A stretch of DNA of 64,000 nucleotides from Polyangia bacterium (GCA_050287845.1 JBNKCR010000025.1:1-64000), one strand, 5' to 3'; counted from the stretch's first letter, positions 35,562-58,670 are shown. The notes: a model not told the origin generated them from the letters alone. Made by a program: numbers and translations.

Positions 35562-35771
35562 GTTGCCGGTGGAGTTGTTATGAATATCAATTTCATACGC
35601 TCCTGAAAATGGGAACCTGGTGAGAATCCGGGACTGCCCCGCAGCGGTAAGTGGGAACGAAAACTGTCATTAAGCACTGGGTCATAGTGACCTGGGAAGC
35701 GACGGTGAGTAGGCACAGGGTGTGATGCCCTTTTCAATTTATGCCCACAAGTCCGAAGACCTGCCGGAAAC
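35562..35771 (+). ncRNA. Cobalamin (AdoCbl) riboswitch
   Basis: AATGGGAA..GGTGAGAATCC..GACTGCCCCGCAGCGGTAA, CACTG...GGGAAG, B12 box AAGTCCGAAGACCTGCC; upstream of a TonB receptor. Confidence 0.95.
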
Positions 35772-35955
35772 GATAACTGTTTGCCAGACCTTCGAGGGAG
35801 AGGACGGCGAAAATGATCAACAATCGTTTTCCTGAAAAAATATCTTTCGCAGCAATAATACCTGCGGCTCCGCTGAGAGTCCTCTGTTGTCTGGCATATC
35901 CCATTGATTGCGTTATCCATCACGCAATCTTGCCACCAACGGAGAACGCAACGCT

Positions 35956-38136
35956 GTGCAACGTTTGATTCCGATTTCGATTCCGCTGATTGCCTGGTCA
36001 ATGTTTCCCATTTGCGCCTCTGCCTTTGAGAATGATGGCGCACCTGAAGACATGAACGAGGATGTAGCGACCGTCACCGAAGACATTATCGTGGTTGGCG
36101 ATGGCGGAGACGGTTTCACCGATGACTTTGACAATTGGGACAGCATTTCTGAATTTGCTGAAGAAGATCTGATATTCGAAACAAAAGTCAGAGACTTTCA
36201 AATTCATCATACCGACGAGGTCACGGGATTTGCCGAAACGATTGATGTAACCGAAGAAAGCAAAGGCGTTACAGACCTGTCAGAAGTGCTTTCAAATTCC
36301 GTGGGCGTTCAGGTGCGCAGTATGGGCGGGCTCGGTTCGTATGGCGCGGCAAGTATTCGCGGCTCAACCCCAAATCAGGTGCCGGTTTTTCTGGATAATG
36401 TGCAGCTCAATACCGGGGGATTCTCTGCTGTGAATCTGGGCGACTTTTCTCTTGACGTGCTTGATTCGATTGAAGTGTACAGAGGCAGTACTCCCCTTGC
36501 CCCTGGAACGGGCGGTATTGGTGGCGCCATTGTGTTGCACACACGCGTCCTCAAAGAGCCGGTCATCGAAGTCGCTGGTAGCTATGGTTCATGGAATACC
36601 TGGCGGGGATTCGGGCTCTGGGGTGATTCGGTTGGAAAAACAGATGTGCTGACCATTGCCTCAGTACAGCATTCGGATGGAGACTTCTGGTATTTCAATC
36701 AGCAGGGCACTTTCAGGAATCCGGACGATGATGTGTTTCAGTACCGTACGAACAATGACCACACTGCGTATTCCACAATGCTTAAGTTACGGCGTGATGT
36801 GGGCCATTGGAACGTCACAGCAATGGACCATTTTTACCATAGCGAATTGGGGCTCGCTGGTCTGGACTCGTTTGCCGGGCGAAGCAATGCCAGAATGTAC
36901 ACCATTCGAAACAGTGCCCATTTCCAGTTTGAGCGACCGGCTGGCAATAAATCCAAAATTGATTTGGGGGTTTCGTACCTGCTGTTATGGGAGCTATTTG
37001 ATGATCGGGACGGACTCATCGGCACCGGCCACCAGGATCACAAATACCGCACCGATGGTCTTGGCGGATCCGCGCTGTTAAAAACCGAATACAGCGACAT
37101 GCACAGCACGGTTTTCCGAATCGCAAGCCGGTTTGAAAGATACGGTGAGTTTCGCAAGGGAAGATCACTGGAAGACCAGCAGAGTCCAACCTATAGAGTG
37201 AAAACAGAAATGGGGGGGGAATACGATTTTCATCCATGGTCACCATTTCATGTTGTTCCAACGCTGCGGGGAGAACTGCTGTATTCGTATTTTGGAGGTG
37301 GCCGCATCACGTCTTATGTGGATGAATTTGAGGCCACAGACAAAACGGACTTTTACTTTTCGCCGTCGATTGGGGCGCGGTACGAACCTGTAAAGGGGTT
37401 GCAATGGAGAGCCAATGGCGGGCGATATGTGCGCACCCCGGATTTGACAGAACTGTTTGGGGACAGAGGCGCGGTGATTGGCAATCCTGATCTTGTTGCG
37501 GAGTCGGGATACAACATGGATGTCGGTGTGACATGGAAGCATATTGGAGAATCCGTTCTGGATTGTTGGCGTCTGGATGCGGTCTGGTTTGTCAACTGGG
37601 TGGATGACCTGATTTCTCTGGAACAAAACTCTCAGAGTACCTCTCGTCCGGTAAATGTGGGCAAAGCGCGAATTCGGGGGGTTGAGCTGGCATTCAACGT
37701 GACGATGGCGGACCTGATAACGTTTACGGGAAACTACACCCTGTTTCAGGGCGTCGACAAAACGGGATTGCCACAGTACGACGGGAAGAAACTGCCGGTA
37801 CGCCCCACCCATGAAATGTATGGGTGCATCAAACTTGAAAAGAAACTGGGCCCCATCGTCCTGGGGGGATGGTTCGATGCGGACTATGCTGGAAAAGCAT
37901 ATCTGGGCAGGTACAACAACGAAAACTATGTCTCAAAGCATTATCACCTCGGGATTGGCAGCCGCGTTGCGCATCCGGGGTCCGGGTTAACCTTTACCTT
38001 TGAAATTAAAAATATTTTGGACAAATTGCGGTTTAAAAACGATGACGGCGACTGGCGTGCCATGACCGACTACGGGCGGTATCCGCTTCCGGGTCGCACA
38101 CTCATGGCAACGTTGCATTGGAAATTACCCAGATAG
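35956..38136 (+). CDS. TonB-dependent receptor, BtuB-like (start 35956 or 35908)
   Basis: Plug motifs VGVQVRSMGGLG...SIRGS...LDNVQLN...SIEVYRG; RTPDLTELFG...GNPDLVAE; YPLPGRT. Confidence 0.9.
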   Translation: MQRLIPISIPLIAWSMFPICASAFENDGAPEDMNEDVATVTEDIIVVGDGGDGFTDDFDNWDSISEFAEEDLIFETKVRDFQIHHTDEVTGFAETIDVTEESKGVTDLSEVLSNSVGVQVRSMGGLGSYGAASIRGSTPNQVPVFLDNVQLNTGGFSAVNLGDFSLDVLDSIEVYRGSTPLAPGTGGIGGAIVLHTRVLKEPVIEVAGSYGSWNTWRGFGLWGDSVGKTDVLTIASVQHSDGDFWYFNQQGTFRNPDDDVFQYRTNNDHTAYSTMLKLRRDVGHWNVTAMDHFYHSELGLAGLDSFAGRSNARMYTIRNSAHFQFERPAGNKSKIDLGVSYLLLWELFDDRDGLIGTGHQDHKYRTDGLGGSALLKTEYSDMHSTVFRIASRFERYGEFRKGRSLEDQQSPTYRVKTEMGGEYDFHPWSPFHVVPTLRGELLYSYFGGGRITSYVDEFEATDKTDFYFSPSIGARYEPVKGLQWRANGGRYVRTPDLTELFGDRGAVIGNPDLVAESGYNMDVGVTWKHIGESVLDCWRLDAVWFVNWVDDLISLEQNSQSTSRPVNVGKARIRGVELAFNVTMADLITFTGNYTLFQGVDKTGLPQYDGKKLPVRPTHEMYGCIKLEKKLGPIVLGGWFDADYAGKAYLGRYNNENYVSKHYHLGIGSRVAHPGSGLTFTFEIKNILDKLRFKNDDGDWRAMTDYGRYPLPGRTLMATLHWKLPR

Positions 38137-38183
38137 TGTCTGGGCTGACATTTCCATTCAGGGAGATTCCAGGGAGATTCTAA

Positions 38184-39455
38184 ATGATAAAAAAACAAAG
38201 AGAAAAAGTAACGGGCGGACAGCGAACAATGCACCTGTGGTTGCCAATTACGATCCTGACATGCGGCCTTGCTTCAGCGTCCTGTGATGACGATGAAAAC
38301 GACCCAGCTGATACAGCCAGTACGGATACTGCTACAGGCGGTGATAGTACGACAGGCAGTGACAGTGCGACAGGCAGTGACAGTACTACAACCGACACGA
38401 GTAGCGATACAGATTCCGATACCGGCGTTGTTGCCAAACCGGCTACCGGTGTTCTGGTGATTACCACAGATTACCAGACTGGCGCATATTCAACCGTATC
38501 ACTCAATGGCAAGGTCGTGACCCAAGACGTGGACATCATTCACTCCGATGCGGTTTGCCATGTGGATGGCGCTACCGGTACGCCTTTTATTTTGCAACGG
38601 CTGAGTGCGGACGCGGTGGATGTGTTGAATCCCACAAATTTTGCTATCACAAAAGAGTTTTCGGTTGAACCGTCTTCGAATCCCCACGACATCGAGCTGG
38701 TTGCGGCTGATAAGGCCTATGTCACTCGCTTTGGATCGCCTCTGATACTTATTATCAATCCCACAACTGGCGCTCAGACAGATACGGTGGATGTAAGCGC
38801 GCTGGCGGACGCAGATGGCATTCCAGAGATTTCCGGAATGGTGAACATGAAAGGCAAACTGTACGTGACGGTATCCCGGCTGGACAGGGACAATGGATGG
38901 GAACCCGTAGGCGACAGTTATATTGTTTTCATAGACGCAGCAACCGGCGCCGTGGAAGGGAACGTAAAAGTTCAGGGAACAAATATTGTGGGGCAGCCGG
39001 AATGGTCTGCCGCTTTAGGCAAATTCGTTATCTCACAGGTGGGTTCATATGGCACTCTGGCAGATGGCGGTGTGCAGCTACTCGATCCGGCGACCAATAC
39101 CCTCGGCGCGTTTGTCATTACCGAAGCAACCCTGGGCGGTAGTTTGAACAAAGTGGTGTGCGCAACGGAAACCAAGTGTTTTGCCATTATCGGCGTTACC
39201 GGCGACAGCGGCAGCAATACGCATCTGGTTGAGTTCAATCCCCAGACAGGTACAGTAACCGGCACCCTTGCCGCAGGGTCTGGCTGGATGTACGGCGATA
39301 TCGCGTTGAATGACGACAACAGTGAACTGTGGCTCGCCGACCGAACAGCTGATGCATCGGGACTCCGCATTTTTAATGTGGCAACAAGCACAGAAAAAAC
39401 AACCGCGCCAATAAATGTTGGATTGCCGCCGAGCGACATCTGTTTCACCAGGTAG
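38184..39455 (+). CDS. Surface beta-propeller lipoprotein (YncE/BtuG-like)
   Basis: Lipobox ASASC, D/T/S linker, SNPHDIELVAADKAYVT blades, C-terminal GLPPSDICF. Confidence 0.72.
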   Translation: MIKKQREKVTGGQRTMHLWLPITILTCGLASASCDDDENDPADTASTDTATGGDSTTGSDSATGSDSTTTDTSSDTDSDTGVVAKPATGVLVITTDYQTGAYSTVSLNGKVVTQDVDIIHSDAVCHVDGATGTPFILQRLSADAVDVLNPTNFAITKEFSVEPSSNPHDIELVAADKAYVTRFGSPLILIINPTTGAQTDTVDVSALADADGIPEISGMVNMKGKLYVTVSRLDRDNGWEPVGDSYIVFIDAATGAVEGNVKVQGTNIVGQPEWSAALGKFVISQVGSYGTLADGGVQLLDPATNTLGAFVITEATLGGSLNKVVCATETKCFAIIGVTGDSGSNTHLVEFNPQTGTVTGTLAAGSGWMYGDIALNDDNSELWLADRTADASGLRIFNVATSTEKTTAPINVGLPPSDICFTR

Positions 39456-39508
39456 GAGGACGCGAACATTTCGATTGTAACAACAACCGCATGAGTGAAG
39501 AGGCACTA

Positions 39509-42500
39509 ATGAAAGCTATTTTCGTATTTTCCCATCCCACATTGTTCCCAGTTTGGGACCGAACAGTTGCAGACCTGCAGCAGCAGGGCATCACAGCAGT
39601 AGTTACCAGTCAAATGGCAGATATGGATTGGGAAACATTTGCTGTTGAAGAGATAGCGGGCGCTGATGCAGTGTACCTGAATTTGAGCGGGCACTTTCCC
39701 AGTTTCAAGACACTCATCGCGGCAGCGAAAGGTCCGCCGGTTGTGGTTCCCGGGGGCGCAGAAACAATCGCAGCCATGACTGGTCAAGGCATCGTGAATG
39801 GTGATCTGTCTTTTGGGGCTGCCATTGAGGGATATATAAAATCGGGCAGTGCGTCAGATTTGGCCAACGCCGTAAAGCTTTTGCTGCACCATGCCAAAAA
39901 ATTGAGAGATGCGCCTCCAAAGCCAATAGAACCGGTGCTTTGTGGCATCTTCGACGAAAAGTCGAATCAGCTGCAAGAGGATGTAGCGGGTGCTATTGAG
40001 GATAAGCGGCAGTCGGTTGTTGCCCTGTGTTTTGGCCGCAGTCTCTATGTGGAAGACGACATGGCGCTGCCGGCTTTTGCCGCGAGAGCCCTTGAAAAAA
40101 AAGGCTTTTTTCCTCTGCTGATATTTTGTGACTGGGAACTGGCCACACAGTTTGGAAAAAGTGACACTCACCCCCTTCACCGCATCCTTTCAGCCTGCGG
40201 CGGTCAGCTTACCTGCATATGGAATGGACTGTTTTCTCATACCGGGGCGCATGAAGATAACATTTCCCCATTTGAACAGTTTGGTGTGCCGGTGTTTCAG
40301 GTGATTCGCAACTACAGCAGTACCGCTGAAGGATGGGCGCAAAGTTCAGACGGACTTTCACCCATGTCAGTTTGTTACAGCCTGACCCAACCGGAAATGC
40401 TGGGTTGTATTGAGCCCACAGTGCTGGCCTGCAATCAGCAAAAAGAGTCAAAACGGGTTTCCGGCAAAGTGAATCTGGCGGATGTGGTTGAAGACCGCGT
40501 GGAAACGCTGGCCGAACGCACCATGCGTTGGCACATTCTTTCCTGCAACGCGCCCACAGAAAAACGGGTGGCCATCATGTTGCATAATTCTCCCTGCAAA
40601 AGTGTCGAAGCCACTCTGGCAAGCGCCGCCGGGCTGGATGCCGCAGAAAGCGCGGTGCGTTTAATGCGTCGCCTGGGGCAGGTTGGGTATCGGGTGGATG
40701 ATATTCCCGAGAGTGGTCAGGCGCTTATCGAACTGTTTCTTGAAAGAAAAGCCTTTTCAGAGTTTCGCTGGACCGCAGTGGATGAAATCGTGCGGAAGAA
40801 TGGCGCTCTGGCTTTTGTGGATGCCGCGGAATACAATGATGATTTTTTAAAGTTGGATGTTGAAGTGCAGGCAGCGGTCAATGACGCATGGGGAGCATTT
40901 CCCGCTGAAGCGATGGTGCATTCCGATGAAACAGGGGCGCCATCCCTGGTGATTACCGGTATTGAATTTGGAAATATTCTGGTGATGATTGACCCCAAAC
41001 GAGGTTGTTATGGTCCCAAATGCGATGGGGAGGTGTGCCGTATTTTGCATCAGCCCGATATTCCACCTACTCATCATTTTCTGGCGACGTACTTTTATTT
41101 GCAAAAACACGTGGATGCCATTGTTTCAATGGGCGCGGAAAGTTCGGTGGAATACCTGCCAGGCAAGCGGGCGGGGCTCAGTAAAAACTGTTATTCGGAA
41201 ATTGCCCTTGGAACCCTGCCGGTTATATATCCATACATTGTCACCGCCACAGGCGAAGGGCTGATTGCCAAACGGAGAGGCAGAGGAGTGCTCATCGATC
41301 ATCTGTCTCCCGCGAAGAAAAAAGTGAGCGATTTTTCCAGTCGTCTGGACGAAATTGAAGATCTTCATCGGCAGGTACTGGCGGCAAGCACGGTGAACGA
41401 CAAAATGCGGCTTGGTAAAGCAGAAGAGCAGTTGCGACAGAAGTGTGTGCTGTCTAATCTGCTGCCGCCGGAACAGGACGAACAGGAGTTTAAAACTTTT
41501 TTTGAAATGCTGCCCGCCAAACTGTCCAGGCTACGAAATCGCAAGGTGGATGGCAAATCCCATGTCATGGGGCAAATTCCGGACGATGAAGCACGATTGC
41601 TTTATGAAGCCGAAGTTGAACAGTTCAGCAACACCGATTGGAACCGGGAATTATTCCACACATCCCTTGGCCGGACTGAAAATGAATTACACAGCGTTAT
41701 ACACGCGCTGGAGGGGAGGTTCATTGCCCCCGGCCCCAGTGGGCATTTGTCCCGGGGCAAAGTGGACACTGTTCCCACCGGCCGAAACTTCTATGGGCTT
41801 GACTTAAAAACAGTACCCACTCGCACCGCATGGGATGTGGGACATCTGATGGGAGAGCAATTACTGCAAAAGTATCTTAAGGAAGAAAATCGTTTCCCCA
41901 AAGCCATTGGCATTACCCTGTGGTCCAGCGATGTGTTTCGCTCCGAGGGGGAGTTAATCAGTCAGATACTTTGGCTCCTTGGTTGTGAACCACAGTGGAT
42001 GTCGGGTGGCAAGGTGAAAGGGATTCGTCCCCTTGCCCAGGATGAGCTCACCATGGAAGGTATTGATGGCAAAAAGATTTCGCGTCCCAGAATTGATGTT
42101 CTGGTGCAGATGAGCGGCGTGGTGCGGGACACGCTGCCGGTCTTTTATCAGATGTTGGATAGCGCTGTATTAAAAGTGTCTGAATTGGATGAATCCGATG
42201 ACGTGAATTTTGTTCGCGCACACATCCAGAAACAGCTCGCTGAATTACAGAATACCGTGGCCTCTGAAGAACTGCCGTTTCTCAAAAAGATGGCGGCAAA
42301 GCGGGTGTTCTCTTCGAAGCCGGGCAGCTACGGCGTCGGTGTCAATCTGGCGATTGATGCCGCCGCCTGGCAGGATGACGCGGATTTGGCGGAAGCGTTC
42401 ATTAACTGGACGGGATACGCCTTTGGCAGCGGAATGGACAATCAGAATGAGCAAATGGAAAACGCGGCGATAGCGCACTACGCCGGTTTATTGAAGTCAC

Positions 42501-43135
42501 TGGATGTGTCGTACCAGAAAGCGAGCGCAGCGGAATACGATGCCCTGTCGTGTGGGTGTTACTCCGGGTTTCAGGGAGGAATGGCCGCGGCCAAACGGGG
42601 TCTTGGCGGGGGGGAAACCAAACTGTACTGGGGTGACTCGGTCACCAGCGAATCACCGGAAATTCGCGACCTGTCTGAAGAGATTGATTTGGGATTTTCG
42701 TCACGCCTGCTCAATCCCGACTGGGTGGAAAATCAAAAGGAACAGGGATACCGAGGCGCGTTTGCGGTTTCCACCATGGTCAACGCCGTCCATGCATGGT
42801 CGGCGACCACTCATGTGGTCACCAAAGAACAGTTCGATGGCATTTGCCGTGTGTACGTGGAGAACCAGGAAAACCGGCAGTGGTTGAGAGACGCCAATAT
42901 TTATGCGTTTGAGGAAATCACGCGGCGACTTTTAGAAGCGCAGGCGCGGGGGTTGTGGCGGGCGGATACGCAGCAGCTGGAATCTGTACAGGCAGCTGCG
43001 CTCTCCGTTGAGGGCGATCTCGAAGAATGCATTGGCGAAACCAGCGGCGAATTTCAGGGGGGCAGTGTGGATATTCTGACCGCTGATCAGGTGGAGAAGT
43101 GGCAATACCGGTATCGTATTGAGAAAGACAATTAA
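39509..43135 (+). CDS. CobN/BchH-family chelatase large subunit, degenerate paralog
   Basis: SLTQPEMLG, PKRGC...CDGEVC, GPSGHLSRG...PTGRNFY, RPRIDV, SGVVRD; HxGxHG replaced by SMGAES. Confidence 0.88.
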   Translation: MKAIFVFSHPTLFPVWDRTVADLQQQGITAVVTSQMADMDWETFAVEEIAGADAVYLNLSGHFPSFKTLIAAAKGPPVVVPGGAETIAAMTGQGIVNGDLSFGAAIEGYIKSGSASDLANAVKLLLHHAKKLRDAPPKPIEPVLCGIFDEKSNQLQEDVAGAIEDKRQSVVALCFGRSLYVEDDMALPAFAARALEKKGFFPLLIFCDWELATQFGKSDTHPLHRILSACGGQLTCIWNGLFSHTGAHEDNISPFEQFGVPVFQVIRNYSSTAEGWAQSSDGLSPMSVCYSLTQPEMLGCIEPTVLACNQQKESKRVSGKVNLADVVEDRVETLAERTMRWHILSCNAPTEKRVAIMLHNSPCKSVEATLASAAGLDAAESAVRLMRRLGQVGYRVDDIPESGQALIELFLERKAFSEFRWTAVDEIVRKNGALAFVDAAEYNDDFLKLDVEVQAAVNDAWGAFPAEAMVHSDETGAPSLVITGIEFGNILVMIDPKRGCYGPKCDGEVCRILHQPDIPPTHHFLATYFYLQKHVDAIVSMGAESSVEYLPGKRAGLSKNCYSEIALGTLPVIYPYIVTATGEGLIAKRRGRGVLIDHLSPAKKKVSDFSSRLDEIEDLHRQVLAASTVNDKMRLGKAEEQLRQKCVLSNLLPPEQDEQEFKTFFEMLPAKLSRLRNRKVDGKSHVMGQIPDDEARLLYEAEVEQFSNTDWNRELFHTSLGRTENELHSVIHALEGRFIAPGPSGHLSRGKVDTVPTGRNFYGLDLKTVPTRTAWDVGHLMGEQLLQKYLKEENRFPKAIGITLWSSDVFRSEGELISQILWLLGCEPQWMSGGKVKGIRPLAQDELTMEGIDGKKISRPRIDVLVQMSGVVRDTLPVFYQMLDSAVLKVSELDESDDVNFVRAHIQKQLAELQNTVASEELPFLKKMAAKRVFSSKPGSYGVGVNLAIDAAAWQDDADLAEAFINWTGYAFGSGMDNQNEQMENAAIAHYAGLLKSLDVSYQKASAAEYDALSCGCYSGFQGGMAAAKRGLGGGETKLYWGDSVTSESPEIRDLSEEIDLGFSSRLLNPDWVENQKEQGYRGAFAVSTMVNAVHAWSATTHVVTKEQFDGICRVYVENQENRQWLRDANIYAFEEITRRLLEAQARGLWRADTQQLESVQAAALSVEGDLEECIGETSGEFQGGSVDILTADQVEKWQYRYRIEKDN

Positions 43136-43136
43136 T

Positions 43137-46159: not shown

Positions 46160-46167
46160 AAACGCGC

Positions 46168-49745: not shown

Positions 49746-50611
49746 CGGCTTTTATTGGAAGCAATTCTCATTCCCTGATAGGGCGTTTGAATGTGCGTTT
49801 AAAGCTGGCGCTGGGTTTCAGTATATCGATGATGGCGATAGCTGTGGATAGTCTCTACTTTTTAACCGGTTTAATGCTGGCCGGCGCTTTGATTTTTATT
49901 GCAACCATGCCTTCCCGTGTGCAGGTGCGGCTGATTGTGCTGCTGTGCCTGCTGATTGTGTGGGGCGCCATGTTCAGTCAGGCGATTTTTTACAACCGGT
50001 TTCCAAGGGATGTCCTGTTTACAATTATCGAACCCAATACCATGTTCAGCGGCGGGCTTCATGTGTATCATCAGGGCATCTATTATGGCGCAGTTCAATC
50101 TTTTCGGATGGTCGCCGTGTTGCTGACAGGTTATGCCATCTGTTTTTCAACCAGTGATGAGCAGTTTTTACGTGGCTTTGTGGCGTTAAAAATTCCCTAC
50201 GCTATTTCATTTATGGCGGTTTCTGCAATTCAGTTTGTGCCGGTCGCGGTGGCGGAGTTTCGTCAGGTGCGTACGGCGATGAGACTCAAAGGATATCGAC
50301 CTTTTAAAACGGGTTTTCGCGGCACATTAAAAACAGAGCTGGGAGCACTTGGAACGATGCTGGCCGGCGCCATCCGTCATTCGGAGGAAAAAGCAGTATC
50401 TATTTTAACGCGGGGATTCAGTGTGAATGGCGTTCGGTCATCCTTCCGGGAAGACACGTTGAGTATAAAGGAAAAAGTCGCTATATCTACAATGTTGTCA
50501 GTGGTTGGTGGCATTGTGGCAATGCGGGTGCTGTTCTGGTGCTATCAGTACCAGTTGATTTATATGCCCGAACTTCGGTGGGTGTATGGCTTTGTGAGGA
50601 ATTGGTTGTGA
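49742..50611 (+). CDS. ECF transporter T component (CbiQ/EcfT)
   Basis: TM helices; QVRTAMRLKG and SILTRGF correspond to the two ARG-like coupling motifs. Confidence 0.85.
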   Translation: MTAFIGSNSHSLIGRLNVRLKLALGFSISMMAIAVDSLYFLTGLMLAGALIFIATMPSRVQVRLIVLLCLLIVWGAMFSQAIFYNRFPRDVLFTIIEPNTMFSGGLHVYHQGIYYGAVQSFRMVAVLLTGYAICFSTSDEQFLRGFVALKIPYAISFMAVSAIQFVPVAVAEFRQVRTAMRLKGYRPFKTGFRGTLKTELGALGTMLAGAIRHSEEKAVSILTRGFSVNGVRSSFREDTLSIKEKVAISTMLSVVGGIVAMRVLFWCYQYQLIYMPELRWVYGFVRNWL

Positions 50612-52155
50612 AACGCGACGCCATTTTATTATTTCCGCGTGCTAAAGTATCTTTTAGACGGTTGTTCGCATTGCTGCTTGGCGGGATACTTGTCGTTCCA
50701 ATCCCTTCTGTTTACGCCGGTGACACCTGGCCGGCGATACAGAAGAATTCGTCCCACTGCAGACATCAGCGCGATACTGGTGCGCCATCAATTCCATGCC
50801 CTATCGATCAGATTGACCTTGAAGATGTGTCTTTTTATGTTCGTGGTCGCTGGCAGCCCGACACGTTTGTGAAGTTCTCTCCCAACGGCCGGTTGCTGGG
50901 AATTGGTTCTTATACGGGTAAAATGCGCCTTTGGGATGTGTACGGGCAAAAAATGCTCTGGGAAAAAGATATTGCCGAAGGCATTGTAAAAAGAATTGAT
51001 TTTTCGAACGATGGAAAACGCGTCTGTTTTGGCGAACAGAGCGTGGATGGATTTATTTACTGCGCGAATACGAACACCGGGGATGTGCAGTGGCGGTTTC
51101 GCCTGGCTAACGATTTGCAGACGAGCAAACCCCCGGCCAAAGATGATTCCTACGGCATTTTCACTTTACCTGCGCCGTATGGTCTGAAGGTACTGGATAA
51201 TGGCGATGTGCTTGTGCTTGGCATTCATTCCTGGAACGACGAAAATACATTTCGCGACCGGACTATGTTATCCAGAATTTATCGACTGTCGCCGGAAGGA
51301 AACGTTCGTTGGATCTATCCGAAAGAGGCGCCGTTGCCGATGACTGTCATTGATATGGATTCTGATAGCAGAGGAGACAATATTGCTTTTTTAATCACTA
51401 AAAAGAGCGCTCAACCGGATGTGGTGGCGCCGTATGCCGAAGGAACGATGGTGGTACTGGATGGGCGCGCCGGCAAGCCGGTCTGGCAATACACATTTGA
51501 GCCATTGTCGCCTTTTTTTAACAGCGTGGGGTTTTGGGAATCCATCTCGGTGGCGCCGGATGGAACTCGCGCATCGGTGGGCCTCTTTGATGGACGTACC
51601 ATGCTGTTTGACATCGCCCATAAGCGTGTGGAGAAAGTGTTCGATTTTGGCGCGCCCATCTCCATCAGCGGCGTGCCGGTGAGCGCCAGCGCCACTTACA
51701 ATCATCTTGCGAGTGACGGAATGGCCTATTTTCAAACAGGCACCTCCTCTGTTCCCATGGCAAGCACTATGGCCCATGTGGTAGCGCCTCCTGGACCGCA
51801 TCCCAATGCCACAATGCTGACGGCGGTGGACCCTGAAGGAAAGATTCAATGGCGATATCGCAGTGGTCACAGTTTTCAAAATTTTTGGAGCAGCAACGAC
51901 GGCAGATGGCTGCTGACAGCAGTACAGAGAGATGATGACCAATTCGGGTGGGAGTCCGGGGCCATGCTTTTCGATACCCATCGCAAAGGGGGAGGCACAT
52001 CAAAATTGGTATATTTTTACCAGGTTGAAGGAAAAACCCATTTTCACGCAGACATTGCGAGTGACGGTGCTGCGTTCGCATTGGTGGAGACCCCTTATCG
52101 GGACCCGCAAACAGAGCGCATCGTGGGCAGCTACCAGGTGCATGTGGTGAGGTAA
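50608..52155 (+). CDS. Secreted WD40/PQQ-like beta-propeller protein
   Basis: GTG overlapping the ecfT stop; signal peptide (VYAG); FSPNGRLL, FSNDGKRV, GDVQWRF, GNVRWIY, GKIQWRY blades. Confidence 0.78.
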   Translation: MKRDAILLFPRAKVSFRRLFALLLGGILVVPIPSVYAGDTWPAIQKNSSHCRHQRDTGAPSIPCPIDQIDLEDVSFYVRGRWQPDTFVKFSPNGRLLGIGSYTGKMRLWDVYGQKMLWEKDIAEGIVKRIDFSNDGKRVCFGEQSVDGFIYCANTNTGDVQWRFRLANDLQTSKPPAKDDSYGIFTLPAPYGLKVLDNGDVLVLGIHSWNDENTFRDRTMLSRIYRLSPEGNVRWIYPKEAPLPMTVIDMDSDSRGDNIAFLITKKSAQPDVVAPYAEGTMVVLDGRAGKPVWQYTFEPLSPFFNSVGFWESISVAPDGTRASVGLFDGRTMLFDIAHKRVEKVFDFGAPISISGVPVSASATYNHLASDGMAYFQTGTSSVPMASTMAHVVAPPGPHPNATMLTAVDPEGKIQWRYRSGHSFQNFWSSNDGRWLLTAVQRDDDQFGWESGAMLFDTHRKGGGTSKLVYFYQVEGKTHFHADIASDGAAFALVETPYRDPQTERIVGSYQVHVVR

Positions 52156-52159
52156 CGGG

Positions 52160-53155
52160 ATGAAAGATGTCTCTGATACCCAAAGGAGAAACCTGACAGG
52201 ACATCCTGTTATTCGGTACCTGGTCATGTTTGTCACCGGTAAATGCAATTTACAATGCCGATATTGCTACGCCCATGATTTGCTGCAATTTGGTGCAATG
52301 CCATTCGACATTGCTGTGGAGGCATTGAATATTGTGGCTTCATCGAACCGACCTTTTCATGTGCAGTTCACTGGCGGCGAACCCCTGCTGGAACCGCAGC
52401 TGTTAGGAAGCATTTGCGACTTTATTCAGGGAAAAAATATCAACATCTCGATGGGCGTCCAGACCAATGGCACGTTGATTAATGAACAGAACGCCCGAAT
52501 GTTTCAACATTACGGACTGGAAGTGGGGCTTAGTATTGATGGCATTGCGGATATTCATAATCTGCAGAGAGGCAGGTTCGATTCAACCATCCGCGGGTTA
52601 CAGGTACTTGCGCAACATGACATTCCCTGTCGAGTCACTACCGTCGTTACCGAGGCAAATGTATTGCATCTGGATAAGCTGGCGCTGATGCTGGCCGGGT
52701 TTTCCAACGTGAGAGGAATTGGGCTGGATTTACTGGTAAATAAGGGCAGTGCGGTCGTTCACCATTTAAAACCGCCGAGTCCCGGATGTCTCAGTAAGGG
52801 CGTGCAGGCCCTGAAGAAGATGCTGAATGTGGTGAACACCAGGCGAACGCTACCTCTACAGGTGCGCGAGCTGAATATGCATGGCAGGCGTAGGGATGTA
52901 CTGTGTCATGGGGCAAAAGGCGAAAGCATGGCTGTGTTACCCAATGGCAGTGTGTATCCCTGCAGTCAGACTGCTGGTGACCCGAATTTTAACTGCGGCA
53001 CTGTTCACAGTATCAACTGGAAACGGCTGCGAATGAGCGTTCAAGGTGACGATTGTCCCAGCCGGACACACTACAATCTGGGGGAGAACCTGATTCTGCA
53101 CACCGCCCTGCAGCGAGAGACACCGGGAAACAAAACTGAAAGAAATTTTGAATGA
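52160..53155 (+). CDS. Radical SAM protein with truncated SPASM/twitch domain
   Basis: CNLQCRYC, FTGGEPLL, QTNGTL, SIDG; C...LPNGSVYPC...CPSR. Confidence 0.9.
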   Translation: MKDVSDTQRRNLTGHPVIRYLVMFVTGKCNLQCRYCYAHDLLQFGAMPFDIAVEALNIVASSNRPFHVQFTGGEPLLEPQLLGSICDFIQGKNINISMGVQTNGTLINEQNARMFQHYGLEVGLSIDGIADIHNLQRGRFDSTIRGLQVLAQHDIPCRVTTVVTEANVLHLDKLALMLAGFSNVRGIGLDLLVNKGSAVVHHLKPPSPGCLSKGVQALKKMLNVVNTRRTLPLQVRELNMHGRRRDVLCHGAKGESMAVLPNGSVYPCSQTAGDPNFNCGTVHSINWKRLRMSVQGDDCPSRTHYNLGENLILHTALQRETPGNKTERNFE

Positions 53156-56100
53156 ACGAATTCAAGTTATGTTATTTCAGTGCAACTTCAATGGAGCTTC
53201 CGTCTCTGGGACATGCGGTGCGTGCCTACCGGAATACCGGTCAGGAAATTTCAGTGTTCTCGCGGACCCCGTCCCAGCTTTTTGCAGAAAATGAAATCAC
53301 GCGATTTGTAAAAAAAGCGATGGACTGCCACGTGGTATACGTCGCACTTCATGGCGGAAAGATGTCTTGTCCTGCGTTTGACCCGCTCGTTGCTGCTATG
53401 GAAGACGCAAAGAAGCAGGGCGATTCACGACCGCTGTTTGTGATTCAATCGGTGGGGGGGGACGAAGAGGCAGTTCTTTTGGCAAAGGAATATGGCGATC
53501 TCAATGACAGGGAAGGGGTTGCGCGAGTCAGTGAATATTTTACAAAAGGCGGCACTGAGAACTTTTTAAGGCTTCTTCAGTACTTGCACAGTATTTATTT
53601 CGATACTGGAGTCGAAATCCCTGCCCCGGTGTCGATTCCATGTCAGGGAATTTATCATCCGAAAATTAGTGGTGCAATGAATTTGGCTGCATGGGAATCA
53701 GAGATAAGAATCCCGGACAAACCAACGATAGGTATCTGGTTTTATCAGGGATTCTGGCTGAATCAGAATCTTGCCCATGTGAATGCATTCATCGCGGAAG
53801 TCGAAAAACAGGGGAACAATGCGCTTGCTGTCTTTTCGTACCGGTTAAAGGATGTGGCGCTGGGGAACCTTGGGGCAGACGACATTGTCGCGAAGTATTT
53901 TTGCCGCGATGGTAAACCGATGATAGATGCGCTGGTGAGTTTAATGGGGATGTCCATGAGCATTGCTCAACCGGAGTATGCCAATGTGCTCCCTGCGTTA
54001 AACGTTCCCTATCTGCAGGGACTGGTAAGCTCATCGCCCTGTGCCGTGTGGAAAGATAGCGACAAAGGTGTCTCCACAATGGATGTGACTTTTCAGGCAG
54101 CGCAGCCGGAGTTTGATGGCGCCCTGATTACGGTGCCGGTTGCAACAAGAGAAGAAAACGAAGTGTGTCCGGTAACTGGCGCCATGTTGTCTCACAACGT
54201 GCCGATTCCAGAACGCACGGCAAAACTGGTATCGCTCGCTCGAAACTGGGCACAGTTGCGACATGTTTCAAATGACCAGAAAAAGGTTGCGATTATTTTT
54301 CATCATTATCCCCCCAGAAACGATCGCATTGGATGCGCCGCCGGACTGGACAGTTTTGCCAGTGTGAAGCACATGGTCGATGCGTTGCAGGCAGCCGGTT
54401 ACACAATAGACGACACCTACGAAGACGGGGATGATTTAGCCAATAGATTGCTTGAAAAAATGACATGCGACCGGCGGTATCTGACGCCGGATAAGATGGC
54501 TTTGCGCGCTGAGGTGCAGATGGAAAGCGAACTGTTTGATAGTTTTCACAAACAGTTTCCGGAGTCGGCACGCACTGAAATGACAGCAGACTGGGGAACG
54601 CCGCCCGGGGAGTTGTTTGTTCATGACAACAAACTGCTGATGCCGGGCATTATGAATGGCAATGTGTTTATCAGTATTCAGCCTCCAAGGGGTTATCTGG
54701 AAAACCCCGAGGCGATTTTACACGATCTTCATTTATCGCCGCCTCATCATTATCTGGCGTACTACTGGTACATTCGGCATGTGTTTAAAGCCAACGCGGT
54801 CATTCACGTAGGCAAGCACGGTTCACTGGAATGGTTGCCGGGAAAAGCGCTGGGATTGAGCAACACCTGTTATCCCGACCTGGCCATCCAGGATTTGCCC
54901 AATATTTATCCATACATCATTAACGACCCAGGCGAGGGCACTCAGGCGAAGCGGCGATCGTATTGCGCCATCGTGGATCATCTGACACCGGTGTTTACCA
55001 ACGCGGACCTGTACGAGGAAATGAACGATGTGGATAGAATGCTCACAGAAATAAAAGACGCGGAAAGGCAGGATCCGGGAAAGCTGACTGTGCTTCGCCC
55101 CATGCTGTATGAGGCGGTAGTGAAAGCGGATTTGCACGAGGACCTTTCAATTTCTGAACAGGACGCCCTGGAGAAAACCGATGAGGTCACAGGCAAACTG
55201 CATGCCTACCTGTCTGAATTGTCCGACAACATGATTAACGATGGCCTGCACATAATGGGGCAGTCACCCAGAGGCAGTCAGCTGGTGGAATTGGTTGTTC
55301 AGATGACACGCCACGAAAATGGAGGCGTGCCGTCTTTGCGGGAGTCTGTCACTGCCGCATTGGGATACTGTTATGACGATGCGTTCAAAAATCGAGGTAC
55401 CGCCTTTCCCGGCAGCAAAGGGTTGACGGGTGGAGCGATTATACATCGGGCCCATGAGCTTTGTTTAAAACTGGTAACGTTACTGGAGGAGAATGATTTT
55501 AACGTTTTTTCTCCCGGGAACGCGGAGCTTCAGCTCCGCCCTGATATAATCGGACAGTTTGCGGAGCAGGAGCTCCGCGTTCCCGGATTTGGGAACAACA
55601 TACTCCGTGTCCTCAACTACATCTGCAATACACTGGTTCCCAATATCCGCCGAGTCACTGACGAGCTCTATGCGACGTTAAACGGTTTAAATGGCGGATT
55701 TATCTCTCCGGGCCCCAGCGGAGCCCCTACCCGGGGACAGGCAGACATTTTGCCAACCGGGCGAAACTTTTTTTCAGTTGATCCCCGGGTGATTCCGTCA
55801 AAATCCGCATGGGAAGTGGGGGTCAGTCTGGGGGATGCGTTGCTTTCTCGATACAAAGGTGAAACCGGTAAATACCCTCAGAGCATCGGCATGATTGTTT
55901 ATGGCGGCAACACCATGCGCACCAGAGGCGACGACATTGCGGAGATTTTGTATCTGATGGGGCTGCGGCCGGTTTGGGACCAACACGGTATTGTAAAAGG
56001 GCTTGAAGTCATTCCATACAAACAACTGAAGCGCCCCAGAATTGACGTGATGCCGCGTATCTCCGGCTTTTTTCGCGACGCCTTTCCCAATTTGGTGGCG

Positions 56101-56964
56101 TTGATTGATGACGCGGTCAATATGGTGGCAACACTTTTAGAACCTCAGGAAGTGAATTTCATTCGGGCGCATGTGGAAACAGATGCGTTGGAATATAAAA
56201 CGAGAGGCAAAAGCGATGCAGAGGCGAGAGCGCTGGCGTCCATTCGCGTGTTCGGGTGTCCGCTAGGCACATACGGCGCCGGCGTTGCGGAACTGATTGA
56301 ATCCAAACAGTGGGAAACCAAAGAAGATCTGGCCAACAACTACATTCGCTATTCGGCCCATGCCTATAGCAGAAACGCCTATGGCACGGTTCAGAAGGAC
56401 GCCTTTAAAAAAATGCTGAGCCGTATGGATGTAACGGTGAAAAACGAGGATTCCAGAGAATACGATATTTACTCCTGCACTGACTTTTACAATTACTATG
56501 GTGGGCTTATTGCCGCGGGCGCAGCGGTGCGGGGTATTGCGCCAAAATCGTACGTGGGCGACAGTACCGATCCCAAATGGGTAGGTTTGCGTTCTGTTGC
56601 GGAAGAAACGAAGTTCATTCTGCGCTCAAGGCTGCTCAATCCCAAATGGCTGGATGGCATGAAGCGACATGGCTATAAAGGCGCCGGCGATATTTCAAAA
56701 GTAATGGACATTATCATCGGATGGGACGCCACCGCCGATGTGATGGAAGACTGGATGTATGACCGGGTGGCAAAAACATACGCCCTGGATTCCGACATGC
56801 GAAAGTGGTTGAAGGAAGTGAACCCCCACGCTCTGTTAAACATTACCGAAAAGCTGCTTGAAACAATACAGCGCGGCATGTGGCAGACCGACGATGCGAC
56901 CGAAGAATATCTGCGTCAGACATATCTCGAAATTGAGGGTGATATTGAGGACTCTATTGGTTAG
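53152..56964 (+). CDS. cobN: Cobaltochelatase CobN
   Basis: QPEFDG, QPPRG, HVGKHGSLEWLPGK, NDPGEGTQAKRR, PTGRNFF, ISGFFRDAFP, LNPKW...GMKRHGYKG. Confidence 0.93.
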   Translation: MNEFKLCYFSATSMELPSLGHAVRAYRNTGQEISVFSRTPSQLFAENEITRFVKKAMDCHVVYVALHGGKMSCPAFDPLVAAMEDAKKQGDSRPLFVIQSVGGDEEAVLLAKEYGDLNDREGVARVSEYFTKGGTENFLRLLQYLHSIYFDTGVEIPAPVSIPCQGIYHPKISGAMNLAAWESEIRIPDKPTIGIWFYQGFWLNQNLAHVNAFIAEVEKQGNNALAVFSYRLKDVALGNLGADDIVAKYFCRDGKPMIDALVSLMGMSMSIAQPEYANVLPALNVPYLQGLVSSSPCAVWKDSDKGVSTMDVTFQAAQPEFDGALITVPVATREENEVCPVTGAMLSHNVPIPERTAKLVSLARNWAQLRHVSNDQKKVAIIFHHYPPRNDRIGCAAGLDSFASVKHMVDALQAAGYTIDDTYEDGDDLANRLLEKMTCDRRYLTPDKMALRAEVQMESELFDSFHKQFPESARTEMTADWGTPPGELFVHDNKLLMPGIMNGNVFISIQPPRGYLENPEAILHDLHLSPPHHYLAYYWYIRHVFKANAVIHVGKHGSLEWLPGKALGLSNTCYPDLAIQDLPNIYPYIINDPGEGTQAKRRSYCAIVDHLTPVFTNADLYEEMNDVDRMLTEIKDAERQDPGKLTVLRPMLYEAVVKADLHEDLSISEQDALEKTDEVTGKLHAYLSELSDNMINDGLHIMGQSPRGSQLVELVVQMTRHENGGVPSLRESVTAALGYCYDDAFKNRGTAFPGSKGLTGGAIIHRAHELCLKLVTLLEENDFNVFSPGNAELQLRPDIIGQFAEQELRVPGFGNNILRVLNYICNTLVPNIRRVTDELYATLNGLNGGFISPGPSGAPTRGQADILPTGRNFFSVDPRVIPSKSAWEVGVSLGDALLSRYKGETGKYPQSIGMIVYGGNTMRTRGDDIAEILYLMGLRPVWDQHGIVKGLEVIPYKQLKRPRIDVMPRISGFFRDAFPNLVALIDDAVNMVATLLEPQEVNFIRAHVETDALEYKTRGKSDAEARALASIRVFGCPLGTYGAGVAELIESKQWETKEDLANNYIRYSAHAYSRNAYGTVQKDAFKKMLSRMDVTVKNEDSREYDIYSCTDFYNYYGGLIAAGAAVRGIAPKSYVGDSTDPKWVGLRSVAEETKFILRSRLLNPKWLDGMKRHGYKGAGDISKVMDIIIGWDATADVMEDWMYDRVAKTYALDSDMRKWLKEVNPHALLNITEKLLETIQRGMWQTDDATEEYLRQTYLEIEGDIEDSIG
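55514..55586. repeat. REP-like inverted-repeat doublet inside cobN
   Basis: Arms 55514-39 and 55561-86 are 24/26 complementary, each internally palindromic; 21-nt spacer. Confidence 0.85.
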
Positions 56965-56976
56965 GAAACATCAAAT

Positions 56977-58161
56977 ATGAAAATTGATACATACTACGAC
57001 GCCATGGCGCTCCACCGCGAAGACAAAATCATTTATGCACACTTTCTGAAACCCCATCGGGTAATTTCCACCTGTTCCGCCGCGGGTGGGGTCACTGACG
57101 AGATGGCGTACATGTACAACCATCAGTCCTGCGAACCCACAAAGCACCATACCGCTGCGGACCGAATTATGAAGATGTCAGACGGACTGTACCGCGAGGA
57201 TGTGGCCACAAGATACGGCCTGCCATCTGAAAAATGTGCCACCCTGGGCACAGCGGCCAATATGAGATGTGCCGCGGTAGTCACAAAAAAATTCAGAGAC
57301 ACTGAAGTGGTGGTGGTTGCGACAGGTGGTGTGGAAGCAAACGGCGGCCGTGCAGGTGACCCGGCAACGGTGTATGAATGCGACGGAAAATTCGAGCGCA
57401 TCACCGGAGACGCGCCAACCCCCGGAACCATTAACACCATGATTTTCATCAGCAAAGAGCTAACCCAGGGCGCGCTGGTCCGTTCCGTTATTACCGCCAC
57501 TGAGGCGAAATCTGCTGCGCTCCAGGAATTAAGTGTACCATCCCGCTACTCAAACGGTCTGGCTACAGGGACGGGTACTGACCAGATTGGCGTGGCATGT
57601 CTGCTGGGTACCGGTCATCCCCTCCGCTCTTCAGGAAAACACAGCAAGCTGGGCGAATTGATCGGCTCGGCGGTACGAGAGGCCATTAAAGAAACACTCG
57701 TTCGTCAAAACGGATTGTCTCCGGAAAATCGATGTGACATGTCGGTTCATCTGCAACGTTTTGGCGGGTCTCTGTCGCAACTGAAGAATGACATCGTAAG
57801 GCATTTAAATAGCCACGACGCCGAACTGCTACGGAACAACATACTGTGCCTGAATCACGATCCGCTGGTAGTGGCTGCCGTCATAGCCATGGTTCATGTG
57901 CGGGACCAACTGGCATGGAACGTGCTGCCCATGTCGTGTTTGCCTGATTTATTTATCTCCCACGGACTTCATATTGCCATGGCGGTCGCGGGGTGTGATA
58001 AACATTATGAAGACTGGAAACATTCGCTGGCGGCATTAAATATCACTTTAGACGATGCTGACTTTATGGAAATGATATGCTGTGCGCTGGCCCTGGGATT
58101 CGCCGATAAATGGCGACACTGCAATACCGAAAGTGAATCGACATGCCCAAAAAAGGACTAA
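56977..58161 (+). CDS. cbiZ: Adenosylcobinamide amidohydrolase CbiZ
   Basis: NHQSCEP, LGTAANM, TGGVEANGGRAGDP, GTINT, TATEAK, ATGTGTDQ, GKHSKLGELIG. Confidence 0.9.
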   Translation: MKIDTYYDAMALHREDKIIYAHFLKPHRVISTCSAAGGVTDEMAYMYNHQSCEPTKHHTAADRIMKMSDGLYREDVATRYGLPSEKCATLGTAANMRCAAVVTKKFRDTEVVVVATGGVEANGGRAGDPATVYECDGKFERITGDAPTPGTINTMIFISKELTQGALVRSVITATEAKSAALQELSVPSRYSNGLATGTGTDQIGVACLLGTGHPLRSSGKHSKLGELIGSAVREAIKETLVRQNGLSPENRCDMSVHLQRFGGSLSQLKNDIVRHLNSHDAELLRNNILCLNHDPLVVAAVIAMVHVRDQLAWNVLPMSCLPDLFISHGLHIAMAVAGCDKHYEDWKHSLAALNITLDDADFMEMICCALALGFADKWRHCNTESESTCPKKD

Positions 58162-58670
58162 TCATTGTAAATACCGGCAACGGCAAAGGCAAGACTACCG
58201 CAGCACTGGGGCTCGCATTTCGAATGTTGGGACACAAAAACAAAAAAGTGGCGATTGTGCAGTTTATCAAAGGCTCCTGGAAATACGGTGAACTGGAAAG
58301 CGCCAAACGGTTTTCAGATACACTTGAAATTCAGGTGATGGGTCGTGGTTTTACCTACAAATCAGAGGATTTCAGCAAGGATGTGGCTGTGGCAAAAGAA
58401 GCCTGGCAGCGGGCCAAAGATGTGATTGCGGCAAACGAACACGACATGGTTATTCTCGATGAGCTGACCTACCTGATAACCCTGAACATGATTCCTGAAG
58501 CGGAAATCATTGAAGCGCTCATGAATAAGCCTGAACAGATGCATGTGGTGATCACCGGTCGCGGCGCAACCGAAAAACTGATTGATTTGGCAGATTTGGT
58601 GACGGAGATGATAGAGATAAAGCACCCGTATAAATCCGGGATTAAAGCGCAGCGGGGTATTGAGTTCTGA
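58143..58670 (+). CDS. cobO: Cob(I)yrinic acid a,c-diamide adenosyltransferase (CobO/BtuR)
   Basis: TGNGKGKTTAALG, QFIKG, LDE, TGR, KHPY...AQRGIEF. Confidence 0.95.
   Translation: MPKKGLIIVNTGNGKGKTTAALGLAFRMLGHKNKKVAIVQFIKGSWKYGELESAKRFSDTLEIQVMGRGFTYKSEDFSKDVAVAKEAWQRAKDVIAANEHDMVILDELTYLITLNMIPEAEIIEALMNKPEQMHVVITGRGATEKLIDLADLVTEMIEIKHPYKSGIKAQRGIEF

Follow-up and report, generated by a model that had tools for sequence, protein, structure and literature searches.

Why do anaerobes that use CbiK, and probably methanogens too, keep CobN-type chelatases under B12 control? The question is raised by an operon in a 64,000-nucleotide (nt) stretch of DNA from a Polyangia bacterium (GCA_050287845.1 JBNKCR010000025.1:1-64000; the whole stretch is hereafter referred to as the window). 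Judging by Atlas taxa and family matches, the host probably belongs to Myxococcota. The operon consists of a cobalamin riboswitch and 13 co-oriented open reading frames (ORFs; 35908–58670) on the plus strand, the strand of all operon features given below. CobN, together with a pair of AAA+ proteins, inserts cobalt into a finished metal-free ring, CbiZ converts adenosylcobinamide or cobamides to cobyric acid, and CobO adenosylates Co(I) corrinoids. An earlier reading of this DNA made from the sequence alone (the sequence-only reading) took all of the genes as one dedicated and undescribed system for the uptake, metallation or demetallation, and remodelling of corrinoids. Here we report that the operon is instead a composite of two modules that also occur separately: the transporter genes (module 1) are present in 34 genomes free of CobN, and the chelatase set (module 2) is found in various anaerobes, there with Btu-type transporters. 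The main new feature lies in module 2 and is a large subunit, here termed CysN, which by sequence comparison forms a distinct clade with four invariant cysteines, three of them in a gate loop; the sequence-only reading had overlooked these cysteines.

A cysteine-bearing subunit of the CobN family

CysN (39491–43135) is a CobN/ChlH-fold large subunit without the catalytic histidine, as the sequence-only reading had said in calling it a His-less CobN. SMGAES stands in place of the catalytic His motif and aligns with HLGKHG of M. tuberculosis CobN and HFGTHG of ChlH, so that Glu550 (codon 41138–41140) takes the place of ChlH His621, CobN His522 and HmuS His538. Among the best 120 of 1,742 homologues, the scope of all residue counts given here, a histidine occupies the Glu550 position in 16. 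The invariant cysteines are Cys369 (codon 40595–40597), a cysteine in 117 homologues and a gap in 3, and Cys506, Cys511 and Cys516, which form a C-x4-C-x4-C triad in the gate loop (40997–41050), the equivalent of Loop I. These three, along with E514 and H520 in the same loop, are each found in 118 homologues and aligned to a gap in 2, and the loop gates the cavity in CobN, ChlH and HmuS. Furthermore, Cys1023 (codon 42557–42559) stands in place of the second cavity ligand, ChlH His1174, and of HmuS His1209, a position matched by motif and through ChlH His1174; it is cysteine in 100 homologues and serine in 15. Of the homologues, 113 and 108 retain the glutamates equivalent to ChlH E625 and E660, respectively. 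CysN keeps E660 alone of the ChlH set H621, E660 and H1174 and falls under the BchH cut-off, as it does under those of all nine NCBIfam models (best 849.7 against 1468).

A structural model of CysN has the class I large-subunit fold over residues 256–1190, with a template modelling (TM) score of 0.84 to 7c6o and 0.82–0.83 to HmuS; its confidence is low only at the cysteine loop (predicted local distance difference test (pLDDT) 62–67 against a mean of 91) and at the end. On this pattern of conservation, the four cysteines likely bind a metal or an iron–sulfur site. The second large subunit of the operon, CobN (53152–56964), carries the canonical His motif HVGKHG, passes TIGR02257 (953.9 bits; cut-off 822) and has His and Asp at the positions of HmuS His538 and His1209. 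Neither protein has a hydrophobic signal or a membrane segment.

In a tree of 99 large subunits of at least 1,000 residues (FastTree, midpoint root, no outgroup from solved structures), all four-cysteine proteins fall in one clade (support 0.965), sister to the operon-type His CobN; this topology would need several His losses or one regain. Named CysN homologues come from Fibrobacter, Rhodospirillaceae, Propionivibrio, Telmatospirillum, Opitutales and Desulfacinum, with further ones in Desulfobulbus, Chlorobaculum, Spirochaetes, Syntrophobacteraceae and Acidobacteriota. A plasmid collection yielded 298 records, all below 60% identity, the 20 listed being ordinary CobN at 46.8%. Six loci of the phylum (L185–L190) hold a further CobN-like clade, in which the residue at the ChlH E625 position is Trp and that at the His1174 position is Phe. 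No description of the cysteine-type CobN clade was found in the literature searched, which mostly left out subscription papers and whose supplements may hold one.

CobNST, CobN–ChlID and ChlHID share with the operon the fold, the AAA+ partners with MIDAS and the cavity glutamates, and the second CobN is an ordinary member by its family model. Unlike these class I chelatases, CysN lacks the histidine and has four invariant cysteines, and its host uses CbiK for de novo synthesis. The cavity His has been called strictly conserved across the superfamily, most clusters of which could not be annotated, according to the HmuS paper (PMC12583661; here, as for the other PMC sources cited, statements refer to the accessible part of the text). 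HmuS/BtuS of Bacteroidota resembles CysN in fold and in the salvage of an imported tetrapyrrole, and is a precedent for a reductive step in this scaffold; unlike CysN, HmuS is membrane-anchored at both the N and C termini, is independent of ATP and uses His538 and His1209 (PMC12583661). CysN has no anchor, is encoded next to chlD and chlI, and has Glu and Cys at the places of those two histidines.

The neighbourhoods of CysN show where the histidine is lost. A metagenome scan with CysN returned 80 of 94 loci, 65 of them non-redundant and 32 at least 17 kb long; one scan pattern includes Cys516, which is therefore conserved there by construction. The 32 long loci were split by eye into 25 bacterial-type and 7 lone-type loci. 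In the bacterial-type loci, a second CobN, chlD and a radical SAM family gene each occur in 19, chlI in 18, cbiZ and a riboswitch each in 16, a binding protein in 14, btuC in 12, a receptor in 9, cobO in 8 and an ABC-2 permease in 6; a looser 'btuC/D' count of 17/25 includes unrelated ATPases and was not used. Double CobN, ChlD, ChlI, radical SAM, CbiZ and CobO are co-conserved under cobalamin riboswitches at many loci, which bears out the expectation of the sequence-only reading for the neighbourhood of this set. The S family of module 1 is present in none of the 65 non-redundant loci. The lone-type loci, which from the look of their neighbours are probably mostly from methanogens, encode a His-keeping CysN with btuC/D in all seven and chlD in five, and have no riboswitch, cbiZ or radical SAM gene. 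All three lone CysN proteins tested pass NF004646, a model with passing proteins in 2 of 14 control genomes as well.

Of the 32 long loci, the 19 that also encode a second CobN all have a CysN without the histidine, whereas 12 of the other 13 have one that keeps it. De-duplication before the size filter (L106 and L124 dropped, L175 unparsed) gives 18/18 versus 11/11. Over all locus sizes, the 23 paired CysN proteins are all His-less, and 22 of 40 unpaired ones keep the histidine; the 18 unpaired proteins without it all lie on loci shorter than 17 kb. By these sequence counts, His loss in CysN goes hand in hand with a His-type CobN at the locus. The radical SAM gene follows CysN rather than the His CobN, being present in five of the six long bacterial-type loci without a second CobN. 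The related genome G305 has the same operon at the same place, with CysN cut to a 156-residue N-terminal remnant fused in frame to ChlD (L088:11387–13819), the radical SAM gene gone and the other 11 genes kept; the joint loss of CysN and radical SAM counts as one event. A third genome, G303, has the fused operon up to EcfAA′ on one contig and CobN–CbiZ on another, a split that leaves it out of the comparison of radical SAM co-loss. The fused operon is not unique to the genome studied here.

Several further arrangements recur around CysN. cbiK adjoins it in L129, L136, L145 and L151, and a TIM-barrel-like gene recurs in 4 of the 25 long loci. An ABC-2 exporter permease is present in L106, L108, L110, L136, L145 and L150 (6/25), as in operon-2 of Dehalobacter, and was not found in this genome by tblastn. 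In L123 and L124, a His-less CysN is followed by a receptor, two membrane proteins, a binding protein, btuC, btuD, radical SAM and cobO. Three genomes of the same family (L092, L093 and L094) encode a CbiZ-domain protein of 690–705 amino acids (aa) next to a different clade of His-type CobN.

The outline of the salvage set has been published, uncharacterised, so the claim that the system is undescribed goes too far for the outline; the cysteine-based subunit and the evolutionary rule are new here. Operon-2 of Dehalobacter restrictus (Dehre_0281–0292), induced 346-fold on corrinoid starvation and read as salvage, resembles module 2 in its riboswitch, cbiZ, cobN, 657-aa and 348-aa chelatase subunits and 347-aa radical SAM protein (PMC4285132). 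As described in the accessible text, it differs in having one cobN, two cbiZ, Fep/Btu-type import by an ATP-binding cassette (ABC) transporter and an ABC exporter pair, with no ECF module and no cobO; its cobN was compared by description rather than by residues. In Chlorobium, a cobN-bchH-bchI-bchD cluster lies beside TonB receptors, and cobalt insertion into imported cobalamin has been speculated on (PMC8620254). That cluster likewise places two large subunits and ChlI/ChlD near cobalamin uptake genes, cbiZ and riboswitches. Unlike here, the second subunit is annotated as BchH and uptake is by BtuCDF, and the accessible part of that paper mentions neither the cysteine set nor the His loss. 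In our analysis, Chlorobaculum parvum protein P0239 is a His-less CysN. CobN-like BtuS and the ECF families were reportedly described by Rodionov in 2003 and 2009.

An energy-coupling factor importer and its distribution

Module 1 comprises a receptor, a lipoprotein, a secreted propeller, an S protein, EcfAA′ and EcfT of the energy-coupling factor (ECF) type, and probably imports corrinoids. The S protein (46273–48141) has 622 residues, a lipoprotein-like signal and a topology that we infer to be three immunoglobulin (Ig)-like domains and an extra membrane helix followed by the S-component itself (residues 434–622). It belongs to no Pfam or NCBIfam family. Its structural model (pLDDT 92.5) consists of three β-sandwich domains, an extra helix and a C-terminal bundle, and residues 434–622 superpose on the ECF S-component 5edl (Z 14.1, root-mean-square deviation 2.8, 171 aligned residues; VIA structure search), which justifies the label 'S-like' of the sequence-only reading. 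Further S-components (4huq_S, 5kbw, 4hzu_S, 3p5n and 4z7f) match at Z 9.2–10.9; helical bundles reach Z of about 13 by chance, and here many S-components rank together. CbrT is not among the 50 structural matches listed for this domain and is not thereby excluded. A Foldseek search with the whole model gave Ig-like matches only (TM < 0.2 of the query), a profile of 140 members gave no significant match to S-components in the PDB, and a cluster look-up of 10 homologues gave no names. The family has 409 relatives among 50%-identity representatives; 53 scanned for families gave three weak S-type or WxL matches and one unrelated match, with Trep_Strep and ABC_cobalt each matched once, both under the cut-off. 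In the genome collection, a scan with the S protein alone picked up a single locus.

The A, A′ and T components are all encoded beside the S gene. The fused EcfA–A′ ATPase (48138–49745) has two Walker A and two signature motifs and passes TIGR04520 (380 bits; cut-off 315) and TIGR04521 (338 bits; cut-off 330), and EcfT (49742–50611) matches PF02361 (E 6.7e-18). The secreted β-propeller (50608–52155; longest ORF from 50539) is, as modelled, likely the periplasmic binding partner of the S protein. The predicted complex of S residues 90–622 with the propeller scores 0.56 against 0.00 for the best of three controls, with at least 52% of contacts in common between runs and a partner pLDDT of at least 79. 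In a benchmark, 116 of 157 solved pairs passed, as did 2 of 215 mismatched ones; passes at 0.60 or below (18 of the 157 solved pairs and both passing mismatches) are more often wrong unless the pair is likely beforehand, so the score lends weak support.

The TonB-dependent receptor (35908–38136) is BtuB-like by context and falls under the TonB-B12 cut-off. The propeller lipoprotein (38184–39455) appears to be a distant BtuG-like surface binding protein: a profile of 19 relatives matched the BtuG structures 8okv, 8p97, 8bmx, 3dsm and 8blw at E 5e-6 to 1.5e-4, a weak match since NirF and YncE were matched as well, and the single sequence matched nothing. In the BtuB–BtuG pair of Bacteroides, too, a B12 switch precedes a TonB receptor and, after it, a propeller lipoprotein (PMC10404256). 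Unlike that pair, the similarity here is remote (E about 1e-5 over about 120 residues), and the receptor and lipoprotein precede either btuFDC or ECF genes.

The S family, searched with a 13-sequence profile in 300 other genomes of the phylum, is present in 34 genomes from nine families. In the 34 stretches around the S gene (up to 20 kb, limited by BLAST), the secreted propeller and EcfAA′ each occur in 30, EcfT in 22, the receptor and the lipoprotein each in 17, cbiZ with cobO in one, and CobN, ChlD or ChlI in none. A cobalamin riboswitch lies in 13 of the 34, all 13 found by covariance search. A CobN-family gene is absent from all 34 S-positive genomes and present in 16 of 266 others (Fisher p 0.23), and cbiC is present in one S-positive genome. 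A full-length FecCD/BtuC permease, counted by eye at E < 1e-30 with weak matches from model position 80 left out, is found in 9/34 S-positive versus 257/266 S-negative genomes; 12 of the 13 riboswitch-linked cases lack one, and the contrast is kept inside the mixed families f17, f22, f33, f38, f39 and f45.

Because the transporter genes occur in CobN-free genomes and the chelatase set occurs with Btu transporters elsewhere, the ECF part is probably a general corrinoid importer; an ECF module specific to the chelatase system was rejected, as none of the 34 S-positive genomes has CobN. By this comparison of genomes, the simplest reading, and a likely one, is that the ECF importer replaces BtuFCD in genomes unable to make the ring. 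The B12 S-component CbrT was likewise predicted from gene context and a lack of BtuCDF (PMC5997447). ECF–CbrT and group I ECF transporters (5edl) share the architecture of S, A–A′ and T. Unlike ECF–CbrT, the S protein here has about 620 residues, three Ig-like ectodomains, an extra helix and a secreted propeller partner, lacks a sequence match to solved S-components, and would work with module 1 behind a TonB receptor in a diderm. The ECF importer family appears to be undescribed: no description of the S family was found in the literature searched, with subscription papers mostly outside that search and supplements that may hold one.

Operon layout and genome context

The riboswitch aptamer (RF00174; 35550–35782) matches the full model with 97.3 bits against a gathering score of 31.5 (E 4.8e-23), is the sole Rfam match in the window and begins 12 nt ahead of 35562, the start given by the sequence-only reading. 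Directly upstream lies a candidate sigma-70-like promoter (35526–35553), a 10/12 consensus match alone, which is the best such site in 35300–55000 and a hint only, as the scan gave 11 sites against a shuffle mean of 18. The terminator scan (31 sites against 22.7 ± 5.0 in shuffles) was not used, and folding of the leader (z −2.6) does not settle the expression platform. Between the ORFs as listed, the gaps range from −73 to +47 nt; if the S gene begins at 46273 and the secreted propeller gene at 50608, their likelier starts, two of them become about +113 and −4. The operon is presumably expressed as one co-transcribed unit; a look-up of RNA holders for 39001–49000 listed none, a result with no bearing on expression. 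Pfam and NCBIfam agree with the gene labels of the sequence-only reading, the lipoprotein and the membrane protein being without a family; all 13 products had been named, in the right order and strand, under a count of 12.

The remaining proteins of module 2 comprise a ChlD-type AAA+/vWA subunit (43119–45128) with a Walker A and a MIDAS motif, a ChlI-type AAA+ subunit (45128–46159; Pfam and NCBIfam), the CbiZ amidohydrolase (56977–58161; PF01955, E 3.4e-59), a CobO/BtuR adenosyltransferase (58143–58670; TIGR00708 and NF004637, both over the cut-off) and a radical SAM protein with a shortened SPASM domain (52160–53155). The radical SAM protein retains the CxxxCxxC motif and has PapB as its best NCBIfam match (106 bits; cut-off 340). 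Its second-cluster CxxC...C segment is lost here and in the 13 closest homologues, and 99/120 keep the full motif; a recent break in this genome was rejected as the cause, the shortening being in frame and common to those 13. The protein probably serves CysN, and the formation of thioether links in the CysN loop was considered.

Downstream and convergent lies the early-insertion cbi cluster (58792–64000, minus strand; cbiJ, H, G, F, E, D and L), which is context outside the operon. It continues beyond the window with cbiK (C25:64353–65195), cbiC, cbiA and a cysG-like gene, and has its own cobalamin riboswitch (C25:68226–68350). The sequence-only reading took this to be a route without need of CobN and would have been refuted by a genome lacking CbiK and CbiX; the presence of cbiK in the genome upholds it on this point: CobN is not needed for de novo synthesis by early insertion, and a role for CobN in it was rejected. 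The claim of no BtuCDF holds for the operon and fails for the genome, which carries a second riboswitch operon (C98:353585–366816, plus strand) with a receptor paralogue (35%) at its head, a propeller lipoprotein paralogue (38%), btuF, btuD, btuC and nucleotide-loop genes that read from sequence as cobU, cobT, cobS, cobQ (cbiP/cobQ), cobD and cbiB. One type of outer-membrane pair, receptor and lipoprotein, thus precedes either Btu or ECF genes. The cell is thus equipped for both de novo synthesis and standard uptake, and the operon in the window is extra.

Five cobalamin riboswitches were found in the genome (150 of 490 candidates scored); a profile search, seeded with 12 of the 13 riboswitches beside S genes, gave the same five. 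One (C53:15201–17050, minus strand) precedes a lipoprotein gene and a gene for a 469-aa radical SAM protein, which we take to be possibly a CbpB-type peptide maturase. Another (C148:58794–61930, plus strand) precedes an NrdD-like ribonucleotide reductase, a B12-independent alternative, and its activator; nrdD also lies 3′ of several CysN loci (L112, L120 and L126). A cobO paralogue (C151:54613–55020, minus strand; 79% identity) aligns only from residue 44 and is probably truncated. Just past the cbi cluster and its riboswitch (C25:68630–78833), TonB, ExbB/ExbD-like genes, three lipoproteins and a TonB receptor could energise the receptor of the operon or import cobalt. Upstream in the window are a 426-aa protein with a partial match to CdhD, a corrinoid Fe–S protein (24818–26098, minus strand; E 4e-12; 10 kb upstream of the operon), an MrfA-like DEAD helicase with a Zn domain followed by an RNase_H_2/TPR protein (29490–33322, plus strand), and a GH114 lipoprotein divergent from the riboswitch (34433–35374, minus strand).

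Proposed mechanism, alternatives and significance

We read the operon as a fusion of an ECF corrinoid importer and a salvage set for corrinoids that are unusable as imported, a reading to which we give about even chances. Under B12 scarcity, a corrinoid would enter the periplasm by way of the BtuG-like lipoprotein and the TonB receptor, the secreted propeller would dock on the Ig-like stalk of the S-component, and EcfAA′T would drive transport by the S-component across the inner membrane. CbiZ, CobO and CobN together make sense only if the imported molecule lacks cobalt or carries the wrong base or metal; the substrates would thus be metal-free, wrongly loaded or wrong-base corrinoids, and we slightly favour a salvage that includes cobalt insertion. 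In the cytoplasm, CysN and CobN may share the ChlI/ChlD motor and split the work: CysN, with a four-cysteine Fe–S or metal–thiolate site at the cavity gate, would prime the ring reductively by taking off a ligand or the wrong metal, and the His-type CobN would insert cobalt. CbiZ would then cut off the nucleotide loop and CobO adenosylate the product to adenosylcobyric acid, from which the C98 genes (cbiP/cobQ, cobD, cbiB, cobU, S and T) could rebuild the native cobamide. The substrates, the cofactor and the order of steps are our own surmise.

The division of labour is suggested by the contrast between lone CysN, which has both the His site and the cysteine site, and paired CysN, which has the cysteine site and the cavity only; this points to a ring that undergoes two steps, one dependent on the cysteines and the other an insertion that depends on the histidine. 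An Fe–S or thiolate redox site is suggested by the four invariant cysteines together with a fifth one placed axially, and by the linked SPASM-type radical SAM protein; thiolate ligation strips cyanide from B12 in BtuM (PMC6072759). That CysN carries out reductive priming or demetallation is nevertheless a tentative proposal that we place well short of even. The full version, in which CysN founds a new branch of the class I chelatase fold and, with a gate Fe–S cluster and the ChlI/ChlD motor, reductively removes a wrong metal or ligand from finished corrinoids and passes the empty ring to CobN, is unlikely as it stands; it would amount to an ATP-driven metal exchange and repair of B12, supplied here by a new ECF importer with its Ig stalk and propeller partner.

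Several observations weigh against these proposals. Cobalt removal from corrin is chemically hard, and a shared site would need the four cysteines to meet in space, three of them from the low-confidence loop of the model. The operon is patchy, since within the same family 2 out of 20 genomes carry the S gene, and CysN is dispensable in G305, where the operon is kept without it. In L124, no second CobN lies within 10 kb of a His-less CysN, and in L147 a radical SAM gene accompanies two His-less copies of CysN, with no His-type CobN over 15 kb. Of the 25 long CysN loci, 6 are without the radical SAM gene, whose second-cluster cysteines are lost here. For the importer, a BtuC-type permease is present in nine S-positive genomes, 21 of the 34 S stretches have no riboswitch nearby (many contigs being short), FecCD permeases also carry iron complexes, and the phylum genomes are akin rather than independent, which makes the Fisher value for the FecCD contrast too strong. 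In addition, HmuS needs His538 for iron removal, H538A being inactive (PMC12583661), and dechelation of the HmuS type by CysN is unlikely because its equivalent is missing.

CysN could instead insert cobalt itself, as a second insertase that has a thiolate in its active site and prefers another ring, such as amidated, nucleotide-bearing metal-free corrinoids; the pair would then accept more kinds of metal-free substrate, and nothing would be demetallated. The retained matches to ChlH E625 and E660, Cys1023 at the His1174 position, chlD adjoining CysN in most loci, and the His-bearing lone CysN beside btuFCD and chlD, passing its family model in each case tested, are all consistent with such an enzyme. 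Against it, ChlH His621 is listed as essential (PMC13297055), and the loss of the histidine without exception in loci with a His-type partner is more in keeping with divided steps than with two enzymes working side by side; we consider a second insertase unlikely. As CobNST needs CobW for its cobalt supply in vivo (PMC7689651), the cysteines might also let CysN carry or store cobalt for the His-type CobN in place of CobW. No CobW-like motif pair was seen in loci L088–L177, although this absence was tested only loosely, the best PF02492 match in this genome reaches E 1.2e-18 only, and a gate-loop cobalt site beside the histidine would suit the lone CysN; a protein of 1,200 residues with a ring cavity and catalytic glutamates, however, exceeds the needs of a chaperone, and the idea strikes us as improbable.

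Two other readings concern the set as a whole, and each agrees with part of the evidence. A late-insertion bypass could rescue home-made metal-free or mis-metallated intermediates under cobalt shortage, with the transporter as a separate, plain B12 importer under the same switch. The separate occurrence of the modules would be expected under it, as would an operon that lies, here as in G305, next to the cbi cluster; the CysN loci L105–L107, L121 and L129 also lie among cbi genes. By contrast, uptake genes accompany CysN elsewhere (btuC in 12, a binding protein in 14 and a receptor in 9 of the 25 loci), as does the salvage enzyme gene cbiZ in 16, and a similar operon is retained and induced in Dehalobacter restrictus, whose cbiH is broken (PMC4285132), which leaves the bypass with a small share of our expectation. 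Finally, the set might strip metal from non-corrin tetrapyrroles (F430, haem or sirohaem) for the metal or the ring, as the shared fold of HmuS, which dechelates with a reductant (PMC12583661), would allow; a cobalamin riboswitch as the controlling element and the linked genes cbiZ and cobO speak for corrinoids, neither the two HmuS histidines nor the membrane anchors are found in CysN, and the operon has no hmuTUV-like genes, so that we consider this very unlikely. These readings overlap in part with each other and with our own, and the probabilities that we attach to them do not sum to one.

The analysis makes the puzzle of chelatases kept by CbiK users testable and offers an answer in a cysteine-based subunit, the tracking of a normal CobN by the loss of a 'strictly conserved' histidine, and five named residues. 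The ECF module would supply the inner-membrane B12 importer that had been missing from about a tenth of the genomes of the phylum, and its S-component, having a large ectodomain and a likely binding partner, is relevant to the toppling mechanism of ECF transport. If the proposed corrinoid repair or metal exchange is true, an enzymatic way to metal-free or metal-swapped B12 analogues may be possible, and the reading of cobamide sharing in anaerobic communities would change.

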